Assembly: GCA_000002445.1 (NCBI GenBank) | Contig: CM000207.1 | Span: 2,993,548 to 3,057,547, forward strand | Length of the DNA: 64,000 bases | Origin: Trypanosoma brucei | Lineage: Eukaryota | Direction: 5' to 3' | Shown: positions 40,901 to 49,900 of the stretch, piece after piece | Layout of the letters: each line of letters starts with the position of its first letter | Numbering within the stretch: position 1 is the stretch's first letter | Made by a program: the position numbers

Positions 40901-43900
40901 AGATTTCTTTCCCTCCTTAGGTTTTCCTGGCGCCTTGGAATATTTTTCTTGGTCAGTATACTGGCAACAATTGGGGTCCTCTGTTGCTGCCGCTCCTGCT
41001 CCCCTTTGGGCTTCTTGCTTTATTGCTGTCGTATTAAATTTGCAGTGTTTTCCATCTTTCGCGTCACCGCCCTCCCATTTGCAGTTTCCATTCTTTCTGC
41101 AGAGAGCTGCTTTTTTTATTGCTGCGCAGTTTTTAGTTACCTTTTCCGTTTGGGTGCGCTCTTGTCGTGTTTTGCTGTTTCTATTTGTTGTTGCCGCTCG
41201 CTTTACAGCAGTACCTGCACTAGTTGCTTTTTTGCTTTTAGTTGTCTTGCCGCCTCCCGCCTTATTTGCACTACTTGCTCGTGCTGTCTCAGCTGCGTTG
41301 CTATTGCAGAGAGTCCGCCGACCCACGGGATGTCTGTTACTTTGTCCGTGGTGTCCGTGCCGAGATTGCTGTACTTGACACACATGCCCCCATCTTTTTT
41401 TCCTGTGCATGCGCCGTTGATCGTTTTGCCTAGGGTTGCTTGACCGCTTTTCCTTGCTATCAATCCAGTGACTGCCGCTAACCTTGTTTCTAGGGAAGCG
41501 GCTGATAGTCTATGTTTGGTTTTGAGATCGCAGAGCTTTACAGGCTGTGAGATTACTGTTGCCGTTGGTGCAGACGTGGGGTTCCAGTCAGTTGTCAGTC
41601 CTGTTGTGTGTTCACAGGCTTTTTGTTCGTTGCCGGCTTTAGATTCGTCTGCCGTGCAGACGCAAATCAGGGCCGCCGTTACTGTTGTTGCCTTGTTGGT
41701 TGTCGTTGTCCCTGCGCAATAGCCTTCTCGCGTTCCACCCGGTGTTGTTGCAAATAGCTTCGCCGCCGCAGTGGGTGGTTCTGCTGCTGGTGTTTCTCCG
41801 TACACTTGCTTGTTTATGAGTGTTTTGACCTTATCTTCTGTCAGTAGGTCGCTGTCCGGGGTTTCGGCTAATGCTAACGTTTCTATTGCTTCAGCCTCGG
41901 CGGCTATCCTAGCGACTGCTTCCAGTATTGACAGACGCTGCTCCTGTGTCAGTGCTTGGTGTTTGTGTTTTGTCAATGCGTCTTCCTGGTCGCTTGGTTT
42001 TAATAGCAGCTCAGCCGCCCTTTTCTATTTCGGCCACTTTCCGGGCCAATCTTTGTTCACCGCGAAGTCTGCTTGCGGAAAGTCACGCGGCTTTTCCCTG
42101 GCGTCTGGCTGCCGGAAAATGTCAAGCCAGCTACTATCTGCCAGCGACATATTTAGCTCTAGAAGATCTGCCAGGTCTGTATCGAGCCGCGATTTGCTCG
42201 ACTCCAGTGCTGCGCGGTCATTTTATAATTCGATTAAGCCGCAGAGGGCACCTCGCTACCACACGTTGTCGTCTTTTCCTACGTTTCCTCGCGCGGTGTG
42301 CGTTGTTAGAACTATGGCAATAACTATCGCCACTTGTAGATGACTGCCGCGTCTTTGTGGCAGTGGCGGCATTACGACGTTTACTAGTTTCTTCTTTTTA
42401 AAGGATGTGCGTTGAAGCTGAGGCGTTGGTTTTTTTTGTTACAGTTTGGTGCTATAGAAGATTGCCATTTTCTGTTCAGTGCCTTTCCGACCTTTTAGAG
42501 TAGCCAAAGCTAGAGTTCTTTTGTTTAACGCTGAATCGGTAACGATTATAAAATGGAAGTGCTTTTCTTTTGTGCTGGTTTAGTAAGATGATCTTGTTGC
42601 CTTATAGAAGATGAATGTGACCTTCTATGGGCAATCTCCATAAGTTGAAAACTAATTGAGCTTTTGGTGTCTTTTTTACACCTACAGCAGCCAACGCATC
42701 CTTTGAACACTGGATTTATAAAATTACGCTCAAAAACGTCCTAAATATTGGTTTTAGGTATATTTTAACTCTTAATTCTAATATACGTCACTCTATATCT
42801 ATAACTATTGCATCTTTCCTTCACATTCCCAATTCCCTACCTGTTTGCTTTTAAAAACTTTAGAGAGGTCTGTAAATGTAAAAAAAATGGAATTTATGAT
42901 TTTCACTCTCTTCTATCAACTTCTGCATCCTATGTTTTCCCTGAACTTCGAAGCACAAGATAACACTGTTGCTTCTCACACACGTGGCCCCTTTTTTCCT
43001 TTTTTTTTGGAGTGGTGATACTGAGTTCCTCAGACGTTCGAAATTGAAAATTTCTGTGTAGACGTATGCTGCTAATCTTGGTCTTGCGGTTACCATTATA
43101 TGTGATACGCTTGTTTTAAACTGTTTTATCGCCGGCCCGTATATCAACACGGGTTTTTTGATATCGCCATTAATTTTCTATATTTTATAGAAATAGTCTG
43201 CGGTTACATCTGCGTGTATTATTGTTCTCTCATTGCTTCTTCCCGCCGGGGGTTCGGTCAGCCACCTACTCCTCAGTATTCACCATGCACGCCGTGCTAT
43301 ATGCATTGCTTGTGCCGCTTCGATGTGTTTCGCCGTGGTCTGGATTTGGCTTTATACCCTGGCGATGCCGGCCACCTCAACGTGGTGCCAGGGTCCAGTA
43401 CACCGTATCATCGGGGGAATCCAAGAGCCAGCAGCGTTCCTCTCATGGGGAACACTGCTTTGCTCCGGCTACGGCATCATACAGTACAGGGATCAGCAGC
43501 GTCTTGCTGGGACACCGTTTTTCATTTGTCCGTCCCTGGGCACGTGCCAGCGTGCCATCAGCAGTATCATCCGCACTAAGATGCTGCTGTCCGGTGATGT
43601 GGAAAAAAATCCCAGTCCGTCGTTGCGCGGGATGCAGTGGAACTGCGCCGGGCTATATCAAGGAAAGAGATTAGCACTCCACAAAACCCTTGTTGATGAG
43701 CGGATCGCCTTTTGTCTGTTGAGCGAGACAAGGATGACGCCTGGAGAGGCGGCTTGCTTTAGCGTTGCTGGCTACCAACATCACTGAATAGCTCGTAACT
43801 GCAAATGAGGTGGTGTATCAATACTAGTGAGGGAGGACCTACCAGTCGAGACCGGTATGGCCGTTGTTGGTCGCATTGAACAAGTGCATGCAACAATTCA

Positions 43901-46900: not shown

Positions 46901-49900
46901 GGAAGAAGTCCATGATAACACTCATAGGTTTGGTATCACGGGCAACCACTTTCCAACAAAACATAAAGAAGAACTAACGAGGGAAGAAGAAACGGCACTG
47001 GCACGCTTTCGGGTTGGGTTTTCAAGGCACTATGGATGGATGTTGCGAAAGATTAACCCGAGTGTGCCTCCACAGTGCCGATGGTGTAACCCGCAACATG
47101 CAGCGATAGGACCAACAATACAAACAGCCCCAACTGTTGTGACACGCACTCTTCAGAGAACCTCCGAACCGACCAAATGTACGGAATGTGATGCCACATA
47201 CCAATGCCGCTCGAGTGCTGTAACGCACATGGTAAACAAACACGGCTTTGTGCGAGCTGATGCCCTCCGGAGGATCAAATACGGTGATGCAACACCTGGA
47301 GTGGATATCCCCCCGGAGCCCCCTCCAGTGGTGGCAATCGTTCCTCTACCATCAAGCACACGAGTCCCGATGAGACCGCAGGTGCTTCATTGTACCCTCT
47401 GTGCCTCCAAATTCGCAGTGCCAGGCCGACTATTACACCACCTTAGAACAGTACATGGCATAGGCAGCGGTAGTTGCCGCGTGAAAAGGGGGCGAGAGAA
47501 CGAGGACTCATTGCAAGGAGATGGTAGCGCCCCAGCAGCGCCAGCCTCTCAGGATACACGGAAGCTGCCGTTTCAATGTGACCTGTGCGAGGCGAGCTTC
47601 GGTACACGCTCTTCCCTGTCACTACACAACAAATTCAAACATAAAAGCATAGTGACGGAGGACGGTACTGTGGTGGTGGTGCAATTCCCCCGTAAGCGTG
47701 CCCGTGAAGGAAACGTTGACGTCCCGGGGAAAGGCGAGGAGCAGTGTGGTGTGCGCCAAAAAGTGCTCAGTTGCAGGGACTCCCTCATCCGACACTGTAA
47801 GGCTTTCCATAAAGGTGAGAGAGTCGAGCTTTAATGCAGCAAAAGCACAGAATTGTGTGTCACTGATTCCCCACATACAAACACATCCATGTTGGTGTGC
47901 CTGACATGCGGAAGGCAGTGTGCTAGCAGAACTGGCCTCACCCTACATCAAAATAAGATGCACAGTATGAAGGTAGAGCGCGCTGTTACCAGACAACGCG
48001 GCGACTGCAAAGAAACGTCGCTGCACTTGATGAGCTGTCCCGGTTTGAAGGAATTACGTGTCAGGTTTGCGGTGGAAGGCGTGTGTGTGTGCAGAATGTA
48101 TGTTTCTCCAAAAGGCTGGCGCAATTTCTCATTGCCGTTGAACGGAGCCGGCCGCAGGTGAAGTCCTCCCCTAATGTATCAGTCATACAACCCACTCTCC
48201 ATTCTGCAACTTCCCCCCTTATTGCCGAGTGTGGAGCTAGCAGGAAAAGCACCGGATGTAGGAATAGTCCAGACACCCTCAGAGACAGAGGGGGTATGCA
48301 ATCAACAAGCAACAGAAACAGAAAAAGGGGAAGAGAATAATAAACGAATAACAAAAATCAAAACAAAAGGATTGCTAATTGACATCTTTTGGAGAGTCCG
48401 GAGTGGGGGGCTTCTCGCCCCATCTGCTGTATTCCGTTCAACTGCGGAGCTACAACAAAAAATTATAGAGAGTGTATTAGGCTGAATAAAAAAAAAGGGA
48501 GACTCTGCCACAGTCGCCAGACCGATAGCATCTCAGGATTCTACGGTGATGGCTGATGGCCGCGCCAGTGGGGGAAAACTCTCTTAAAGGCACAATGAAA
48601 ATTTTTAAAAAATTGTGTTCGGTTGTTTCGCCTGTGGTTAGCATGTTGTATAGTCTCCGTGCTTGCGTCGATTCCTGGACGTCGCTGAGAGTCATGTCAG
48701 TTGGCCGGCCTTCCGCGTACATTTAGGCTGCGCTTGGTTCGTTGACAGCGTGGTAAAGCTTTATGTACGGTTCTGGGGCGTTTTTGGTGTTGGTCGCGGA
48801 CCACCCTGTCAGGTCTTTGTACGTCGCTGTTGCACTTTTGGCTGTTACAGTCAGGTATCCTGCTGCATATGCTAGGTTGTCTGCTGTTTGTGCGCCATTT
48901 GCCATTCCTCCGCTGTTGTCGGTGTCGAACAGGGTGGACTTTGTTGTTGTGCCCCCTGGGCTTGTTTCGCCGGCTGAGCTACCCAGCGCTGCAAAGCCTG
49001 TCACCGAGATGAGCGTTTGTCTGCCCGTGCCTGTTTCGTCTATTGCCTCCTGGTTGGGCCCACAGGCGCCCAGGCCTTCGACAGTGGAGATTGTATTGGT
49101 GTTGTCTTTCGCAATGCATCCGACGTTACTTTGCCCGTTGTTGCCACTTTGTGCCGCGATTGTCATAAATTCCGACAGATGACCGTTTCGGAATGCTGAC
49201 GTCCCCGCTATTTTTACAGCTGTCGTTGCAATGTTGCCTAGGTCAGTTATTTTTGATCGTCTTTTGTCTGCGAACATTTCTAGAAGTGGAAGCATCATCT
49301 TTCTGAATTCAAGATTTTGTTGTACGTATATTTGAAGCTTTAACTCCTCTTCCTGCAGCTTTTTTCTGTCAAGAGCCGACTACGGAGTGCAGCCGCAACT
49401 TGTTTTGGTAGCTTGGGTAGTTCCGTATTCAGCGCACATATCTGCGCTTTTTTTTCCGTTTTCAGCGCTTCACCGTCTGCCGCCCGTGCATTTCTAGGCA
49501 GAATCAATAGTAAAACTAGCGTGCTAGCTGCGAGGACGTCAATAGCTATCTTCATTGCTGTTCCTTCTTGTAATTTCCAATCGGAAGGGGCGAGTTGTTC
49601 CTTGTATTGCATGTTTGTTGTAGCTCTGTAAGCATATAGTTTTGCACAAAGAATTACGGCTGCTTTATAATAAATCTCTTTTTTATACAAATTTTTCACG
49701 TTGTGCTGCGACTGCTATGTATGTTTCGATTCAAAAACCTGTTTGAGGAGCTTCATCTCCATAGTTACGATTTTTGAAGCTATTTTTGAAAATAAAAGTG
49801 TTTCCATTTTTATCATCTTACCGTTATTGCTGCTTTCATAGTCAGTCTGCTTCGCGTGCGGTAATTTCTGTGGAGGTGCATCGCTTGTCGGTTGGTCCGG

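Follow-up and report, generated by a model that had tools for sequence, protein, structure and literature searches.

An end-to-end ingi element without a target-site duplication lies between parts of two VSG cassettes in a silent array of Trypanosoma brucei

Introduction

Deletions mediated by recombination between Alu or L1 copies, and chimeric elements formed between dispersed retroelements, are known in primates, and mammalian L1 elements are also known to insert independently of their endonuclease or with deletion of the target. In the silent arrays of variant surface glycoprotein (VSG) genes of trypanosomes, ectopic exchange is frequent and VSG fragments are abundant, and the cassettes are duplicated or converted in tracts bounded upstream by 70-bp repeats. 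Here we describe ingi-2, a retrotransposon without long terminal repeats (non-LTR) that lies between parts of two VSG cassettes in a 64,000-nucleotide stretch of Trypanosoma brucei DNA (GCA_000002445.1, contig CM000207.1, positions 2,993,548 to 3,057,547; hereafter the window, with all positions counted from its first nucleotide). Within the ingi/L1Tc clade, the T. brucei elements of this kind, Tbingi and TbRIME, make up the ingi4 subclade (Bringaud et al. 2004, as reported in PMC3820030), and a 12-bp target-site duplication (TSD) is their norm (PMC3820030). Elements of the ingi and RIME families recombine and cause rearrangements in T. brucei (PMC2854126).

Like canonical Tbingi, ingi-2 has a 79-bp 5′ signature, a length of ~5.2 kb, remnants of reverse transcriptase, RNase H and zinc-finger domains, and an A-rich 3′ end; unlike it, ingi-2 lacks the 12-bp TSD, does not show the upstream motif at the spacing of the TSD-bearing control copies, has a broken open reading frame (ORF) and is a mosaic of at least four lineages or tracts. 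It resembles retroelement-recombination deletions in being chimeric, with both ends intact, flanks from two sites, no TSD and loss of the intervening DNA, but, unlike a simple crossover, the event may have been a gene conversion bounded by a 70-bp repeat. With endonuclease-independent L1 insertions it shares the missing TSD, the loss of target DNA and, perhaps, the lack of the usual endonuclease motif, but its full length, intact 5′ end and A-tail set it apart, and such a pathway is undescribed for ingi in the literature searched. The VSG on its 3′ side, VSG-12, resembles copied cassettes in that homology to its paralogue starts inside a 70-bp repeat (at 50826), but this homology ends at the ingi tail inside the N-terminal domain (NTD), and not at the conserved VSG 3′ end or the 16-mer. 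The kind of event is already known, and the structure of ingi-2 is the expected outcome of retroelement-mediated recombination.

Results

Both ends of ingi-2 are present and a target-site duplication is absent

The conserved 77–79-bp ingi 5′ signature (starting CCCTGGCG) begins ingi-2 at 43357, and a tail of six A residues (AAAAAA) finishes it at 48612 (Table 1). The first 20 nucleotides are identical in five comparison copies (L003, L005, L006, L008 and L009), with one mismatch each in L007 and in the L004 copy at 9993; the degenerate L004 copy at 2043 differs from ingi-2 here. By blastn, ingi-2 positions 1..5256 align to full-length Trypanosoma brucei equiperdum ingis at 95.4% (L003) and 94.6% (L006) identity. 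A previous sequence-only reading had described ingi-2 as full-length and the locus as spanning 43357–49556. The first description holds for the DNA, which aligns end to end, but not for the coding sequence, which is split into at least six ORF fragments; of the span, only the part up to 48612 is ingi-2, and VSG-12 occupies the rest. Matches to RVT_1, RNase_H and zf-C2H2 fall on separate ORFs, no endonuclease match was obtained in any ingi-2 ORF of at least 100 amino acids, and an Rfam scan of the 5′ end for the HDV-like (hepatitis delta virus-like) ribozyme family gave no match. ingi-2 is a degenerate, non-autonomous copy.

Table 1 Coordinates of ingi-2, its segments and flanks, and the other ingi copies of the window
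Feature	Position	Strand	Description
ingi-2	43357..48612	+	End-to-end, degenerate Tbingi non-LTR retrotransposon, 5,256 bp
Segment A	46140..47690	+	ingi positions 2784–4334; same lineage as ingi-1
Segment B	47708..47993	+	ingi positions 4352–4637; private to ingi-2
Segment C	48010..48537	+	ingi positions 4654–5181; exact 528-bp match to inverted ingi-3 (62485..63012)
Segment D	48538..48612	+	Last 75 bp, variant tail …CTCTCTTAAAGGCACAATGAAAATTTTTAAAAAA, contiguous with the VSG-12 junction
Would-be 5′ TSD site	43345..43356	+	TTTGGCTTTATA, 12-mer preceding ingi-2
Would-be 3′ TSD site	48613..48624	+	TTGTGTTCGGTT, already VSG-12 coding sequence
VSG-12	48613..49556	-	Truncated A-type VSG pseudogene, ~314 codons, ATG at 49556
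70-bp repeat	50776..50826	-	Perfect core motif (0 mismatches) at 50776; bounds the VSG-12 cassette upstream
5′ flank of ingi-2	42430..43356	-	Upstream intergenic region of VSG-11 (ATG near 42430); no 70-bp repeat
VSG-11	40700..42430	-	B-type VSG pseudogene (PF13206)
ingi-1	27557..30023	+	ingi positions 2784–5256, 5′-truncated; blastn 96.6% over 2,473 bp; comparator
ingi-3	62410..64000	-	Inverted, cut by the window end; blastn 96.4% over 1,592 bp; comparator

The 12-bp flanks of ingi-2 had been read as unrelated, and they are. In an offset scan with a shuffled null, the best match of TTTGGCTTTATA in the 3′ flank, at any offset, was 7 of 12 positions, which is the mode of 20,000 shuffles, so correcting the element boundaries brings out no TSD either. 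With the same routine, the positive controls gave TSDs of 12/12 for a RIME (L008) and of 11/12 for a truncated element (L005), both from T. b. gambiense. Since the controls yield their TSDs, the way in which the boundaries were set and the test itself are sound, and ingi-2 truly lacks a TSD; a decayed or misplaced duplication was rejected on the offset scan, its null and these controls. The 12-mer TTTGGCTTTATA was found after no other ingi 3′ end in the window.

Decay by point mutation of the 12-bp TSD of a canonical insertion is effectively refuted. ingi-2 is old, being 3–6% diverged from other copies and with broken ORFs, as that account expects, but ~5% divergence should leave ~11 matches of 12, against the 7 seen; decisively, the homologies of the two flanks lie in different cassettes and in different parts of them, with at least ~1.1 kb missing between them, as set out below.

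All three end-to-end ingis tested (ingi-2, L003 and L006) lack a TSD, which is present in the short RIME and in a 420-bp fragment; in a gap-broken L004 copy a TSD was also not seen (by eye). TSD-less long ingis may be common, in what is a small sample.

The comparison copies have features of their own. L008 (10116..10626 of T. b. gambiense FN554969.1) is a complete RIME with the perfect 12-bp TSD TGAAAAAAGATT. L005 (10133..10553 of T. b. gambiense FN554973.1) consists of the first 420 bp of an ingi between the 12-bp copies GGCTACTCTACA and GGCTAGTCTACA; internal ingi sequence TGGCTACC adjoins the 3′ TSD TGGCTAG, which suggests that the rest of the element was lost by microhomology-mediated deletion. 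In L003 (9306..15244 of T. b. equiperdum CM010679.1), 5 bp separate the 5′ end from an inverted fragment of an ingi 3′ end, in a head-to-head arrangement, and L006 (2486..7748 of T. b. equiperdum CM010674.1) has a GGATT-NN-12-nucleotide pattern on its 5′ side and an unrelated 3′ flank.

The two flanks come from different VSG cassettes

The poly(A) end of ingi-2 had been said to abut VSG-12, and the gene does run directly into the six-A tail at 48613. VSG-12 carries an A-type NTD (Pfam PF00913, E=6.4e-31, profile positions 2–296 of 367), of which it retains ~80%, preceded by a hydrophobic N-terminus that resembles a signal peptide. Of the signal peptide and NTD that had been assigned to it, the domain is thus borne out in this proportion, and the signal peptide as a resemblance. 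The coding sequence bears a 1-nucleotide deletion near 49365, which shifts the frame, and an in-frame TAA at 48723–48725. The break lies after the position of residue 247 of its relative P0002 (VSG 1125.2728), in which the Pfam NTD match continues to 316 and the first cysteine of the C-terminal domain (CTD) is residue 344. P0002 and another relative, P0003 (T. b. equiperdum), extend past the break, with …GETTE before it and YKETDAG… after it, by 69 further NTD residues, and the first CTD cysteine comes 96 residues on. VSG-12 is therefore truncated, as had been proposed, but inside the NTD, ~70–96 residues short of the NTD/CTD boundary at which the cut had been placed. The reported absence of a CTD, a glycosylphosphatidylinositol (GPI) signal and a 16-mer was confirmed, with none of the three between 40710 and 54521, on either side of ingi-2. 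The core of the 70-bp repeat lies 1.2 kb upstream of the VSG-12 ATG.

As proxies for the empty sites we used two paralogous cassettes, L001 and L002, from T. equiperdum / T. b. equiperdum genomes. L001 (T. b. equiperdum CM010682.1) corresponds from 8323 to 10554 to window positions 50826..48613 at 89% identity; the homology begins inside the 70-bp repeat and stops exactly at the 3′ junction of ingi-2 (…TTGTATTCGGTTGTTTCGCC… from 48613). Past the junction, L001, which contains no ingi, continues into the rest of the VSG, a 16-mer 635 bp on and the next 70-bp repeat 850 bp on. On the other side, L002 (T. equiperdum OVI CZPT02001120.1, which holds the VSG-11 paralogue P0006) corresponds from 317 to 2704 to window positions 43357..40987 at 79%; its homology stops exactly at the 5′ junction, with ~215 bp more to its 70-bp repeat (3..103).

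The flanks of ingi-2 are thus different cassettes, the upstream region of VSG-11 on one side and VSG-12 at about codon 314 on the other, and at least ~1.1–1.2 kb of array DNA is missing between them. The missing stretch is expected to hold the rest of the VSG-11 upstream region, a 70-bp repeat, a 3′ untranslated region (3′UTR) with its 16-mer, the CTD and the end of the NTD. The C-terminal half of VSG-12 does not lie upstream of the ingi-2 5′ end: the stretch there (42430..43356) gave no Pfam match in its three minus-strand frames and is homologous to the region upstream of a VSG-11 paralogue. Elsewhere in the window, tblastn and blastn with the C-terminal part of the paralogue gave generic matches only, the best being VSG-7 at 26% amino acid identity.

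VSG-7, which is cut by ingi-1, was considered as the missing half of VSG-12 and rejected: it starts at about codon 100 and so overlaps VSG-12 in VSG coordinates. The 5′ flank was likewise rejected as an RHS, DIRE or other gene fragment, having no blastn similarity (window, L001) and no Pfam match in the three minus-strand frames of 42430..43356; its plus-strand frames were inspected by eye only. Reciprocal exchange or inversion with ingi-1 or ingi-3 was set aside as well, as the flanks mismatch the expected continuations, there is no 12-mer partner and all VSGs have the same orientation.

The L001 paralogue of VSG-12 (9610..11200) is also a pseudogene: in-frame stops interrupt its NTD, a further stop lies just past the start of the CTD, and P0002 and P0003 both terminate at this CTD stop point (…CTKANCR). 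The sequences closest to VSG-11 are VSG 1125.456 (78%) and one VSG of T. equiperdum (67%); its own reading frame is broken by several in-frame stops and by a frameshift ahead of the CTD and GPI signal.

The 3′ junction exists in a second copy

Database protein P0001 (UniParc UPI0002C1844C, 296 amino acids) is 89% identical to VSG-12, without its frameshift and stop. Its C-terminus, …GETTEHNFLKIFIVPLREF, is the VSG read on into the reverse complement of the variant ingi tail; a consensus-type tail would translate otherwise, and the P0001 end is readable only from the variant tail. The junction of VSG NTD and variant tail is therefore an old unit that is present in at least one further locus or genome. 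Because P0001 carries it, the 3′ junction is neither a private accident nor an assembly error.

This bears on whether two ingi loci might have been misjoined within the 5.2-kb repeat, with polishing by multi-mapping reads producing the identical tract described below. Unrelated flanks around a chimeric repeat are what a misjoin in a 5-kb repeat of 95–97% identity would give, the perfect 528-bp identity could come from polishing, and independent support covers the 3′ junction only, with none for the 5′ junction. Against an artefact stand the independent occurrence of the 3′ junction and variant tail in UPI0002C1844C, the VSG orientation and cassette phasing kept across ingi-2, mosaic boundaries that are sharp and multiple where a misjoin would give a single switch, and the TSD-less full-length ingis on two T. 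b. equiperdum chromosomes. We regard an assembly artefact as very unlikely.

The 3′ half of ingi-2 is a mosaic

Derived sites were assigned in an alignment of the three window ingi copies with five outgroup copies, and they divide the 3′ half of ingi-2 into four segments (A–D; Table 1). In segment A, identity to ingi-1 is mostly 97.3–99.7% and most derived sites of ingi-2 are common to ingi-1. Segment B holds 12 consecutive derived sites that are in neither ingi-1 nor ingi-3. In segment C, ingi-1 differs from both ingi-2 and ingi-3 at 24 sites, and the run of 528 bp without a difference between ingi-2 and ingi-3 has P ~2e-9, given 60 differences in 1,592 bp. Segment D has 10 differences from ingi-1 and ingi-3, which themselves differ at one site there; six of seven other copies have a tail of the form …C[AC]CGAAGGCACGAAGAAAATT…, and a degenerate inverted L003 fragment approaches this common form without matching it.

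There has clearly been exchange of sequence between ingi-2, ingi-1 and ingi-3 by homologous recombination, and the sharing of derived sites suggests that the 528-bp tract is of an ingi-2/3 type, not the consensus type. The density of derived sites is ~2% in ingi positions 1–2750 compared with ~4–8% in segments B and D, a contrast that fits different ancestry of the 5′ body and the 3′ end.

The 528-bp tract is flanked on both sides by clusters of differences, in the manner of a textbook gene-conversion tract, and the two copies that share it are inverted and 14 kb apart.

Recombination between two ingi insertions as the probable origin of the locus

On balance, we think it probable that two different insertion sites were brought together when ingi copies underwent homologous recombination or gene conversion with each other. 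An ingi with the variant tail would have landed in an ancestral A-type VSG, in antisense orientation and at about codon 314, creating a unit of VSG N-terminal part and variant ingi tail. A second ingi, from the lineage that is also represented by ingi-1, would have been located in the VSG-11 upstream region. Recombination within the ~95%-identical ingi bodies could then have combined the 5′ part and 5′ flank from the second insertion with the 3′ tail and 3′ flank from the first, either by a crossover between direct copies, local or ectopic, or by a gene-conversion tract delimited on one side within ingi and on the other within the 70-bp repeat (50776–50826). The product would be a single end-to-end, TSD-less ingi, with loss of the VSG-12 C-terminal part, the 3′UTR and 16-mer and the VSG-11 70-bp repeat (at least ~1.1 kb), and a subsequent non-crossover conversion with ingi-3 would give the 528-bp identical tract. 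Candidate breakpoints lie at ingi positions 4334–4352 (47,690–47,708) and 5181/5182 (48,537/48,538). Under this scheme one intact parent should read VSG C-terminal half, then TTGTGTTCGGTT, then ingi 5′ end, and the other ingi 3′ end, then TTTGGCTTTATA, then CGTATGAAATCC-like sequence.

The exact ends of ingi-2, the lack of a TSD, the origin of the flanks in different cassettes, the loss of DNA, the mosaic and the tail-plus-VSG unit common to VSG-12 and P0001 are direct observations; that a crossover or conversion, and not the insertion event itself, united the flanks is inferred from them, as is the location of the breakpoints. Both ends of ingi-2 are intact to the nucleotide, which argues against a later random deletion and fits recombination inside the element. 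The core of the sequence-only reading, a recombination or deletion junction and not a clean retrotransposition, is in this way supported by the flank homologies, the missing TSD and the mosaic.

Several observations weigh against this origin. Mosaicism can come from non-crossover conversion that leaves the flanks alone, and so shows recombination activity and not flank exchange; the 3′ end could also be more diverged because, as a non-coding, RIME-like end, it is less constrained. Neither a parental nor a reciprocal product was found in the window or the comparison loci, where the flanks of ingi-1 and ingi-3 match neither site. Protein searches with VSG-12, VSG-11 and the 5′-junction ORF returned only paralogues (67–89%), none of which spans the 5′ junction, and neither the VSG nor the junction DNA was found in scans of JGI metagenomes. 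The insertion-site motif counts on the same side. GGAT(G/T)NN followed by 12 nucleotides stands directly before CCCTGG in three of eight 5′ flanks (L008, L005 and L006), including both TSD-bearing ones; the pattern is empirical, drawn from these eight flanks and not a published ingi4 consensus, and may be part of the ingi endonuclease target motif, in a sample too small to define one. In the 5′ flank of ingi-2 (43337..43356), GGATT lies 10 nucleotides before the element, against 14 in the controls, and the proxy for the 3′ site (L001) has no GGAT(G/T)NN motif, so neither ingi-2 junction resembles a textbook endonuclease site, by a motif seen in three of eight flanks only.

A rival account is a single retrotransposition with target deletion, or an endonuclease-independent insertion at a double-strand break. 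Here priming of reverse transcription would have taken place at a nick or break at codon 314 of VSG-12 and the full-length cDNA would have been joined at least ~1.1 kb away, in the VSG-11 upstream region, with the mosaic arising from later conversion with ingi-1 and ingi-3. The lack of a TSD and the missing target DNA are in keeping with such an event (and equally expected under recombination), as are the lack of GGAT(G/T)NN at the control spacing at either junction, a possible microhomology of 1 nucleotide (C) at the 5′ junction, an A-tail shorter than in other copies (6 A against 7–13) and flank positions as expected of adjacent cassettes. Elsewhere in the window, ingi-1 likewise stands in place of target DNA, ~100 codons of VSG-7. 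Endonuclease-independent insertions elsewhere, in the L1 literature, are usually truncated or tail-less, but both ends of ingi-2 are complete and its A-tail is present. Two parents also account more simply for a private tail next to VSG-12 combined with an ingi-1-like, less diverged 5′ body, and insertion of this kind is undocumented for ingi in the literature searched. We therefore hold an insertion with deletion to be rather unlikely, and prefer recombination between two ingi insertions.

Other features of the array

The window is a silent VSG array of a T. brucei-group genome, in which VSG genes and pseudogenes lie on the minus strand at a spacing of ~3.3 kb, with a 70-bp repeat upstream and a 16-mer downstream; in the databases, they are closest to VSGs of T. 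brucei, T. b. equiperdum and T. equiperdum. VSG-13 (coding sequence end 51177) has no 16-mer at up to two mismatches in 50830..51177, unlike most cassettes of the array.

A blastn search of the window with ingi-2 identified three ingi copies (ingi-1, ingi-2 and ingi-3), all of which touch VSG coding sequence on one side. ingi-1 (flanks 26262..27556 and 30024..30790) directly adjoins a minus-strand A-type VSG without its first ~100 codons; its right flank holds no VSG N-terminus, and a TSD is not evident. The 3′ end of ingi-3 directly adjoins degenerate VSG coding sequence (61300..62409), read from mid-NTD; its 5′ end is outside the window. A fourth, highly degenerate ingi-related element occupies ~290..4400 on the plus strand, at the left end of the window. 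It is undetected by blastn with ingi-2, has an RVT_1 match in the ORF at 659..1264 and 33–45% amino acid identity to ingi-2 ORFs, and is probably a DIRE-type relic.

Discussion

What is new at this locus is new as an instance and unsurprising in kind: a conversion tract of 528 bp between inverted copies, and a unit of NTD plus ingi tail that is held in common with another sequence. The finding that none of the three end-to-end ingis tested has a TSD is a caution against taking a missing TSD around a long ingi for an error in boundary calling.

Together, the 70-bp repeat, the N-terminal part of the VSG and the variant tail of ingi might make up a recombination unit that is mobile between array loci; we consider this unlikely. 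If it were so, the downstream homology used in cassette conversion would be the ingi in place of the conserved VSG 3′ end, and ingi insertions in VSGs would, beyond destroying genes, create and spread NTD-only donors for mosaic VSGs.

At single-base resolution, the locus illustrates how silent VSG arrays are shaped by ingi copies. Insertion of a retroelement into a VSG left an N-terminal fragment of the gene preserved, and the fragment-plus-tail unit persists in at least two diverged copies. Neighbouring copies, one of which is inverted and lies 14 kb away, have overwritten patches of the body of ingi-2. This fits, and leaves unchanged, the accepted picture in which subtelomeric VSG arrays evolve through frequent ectopic recombination, with ingi and RIME elements supplying homology.

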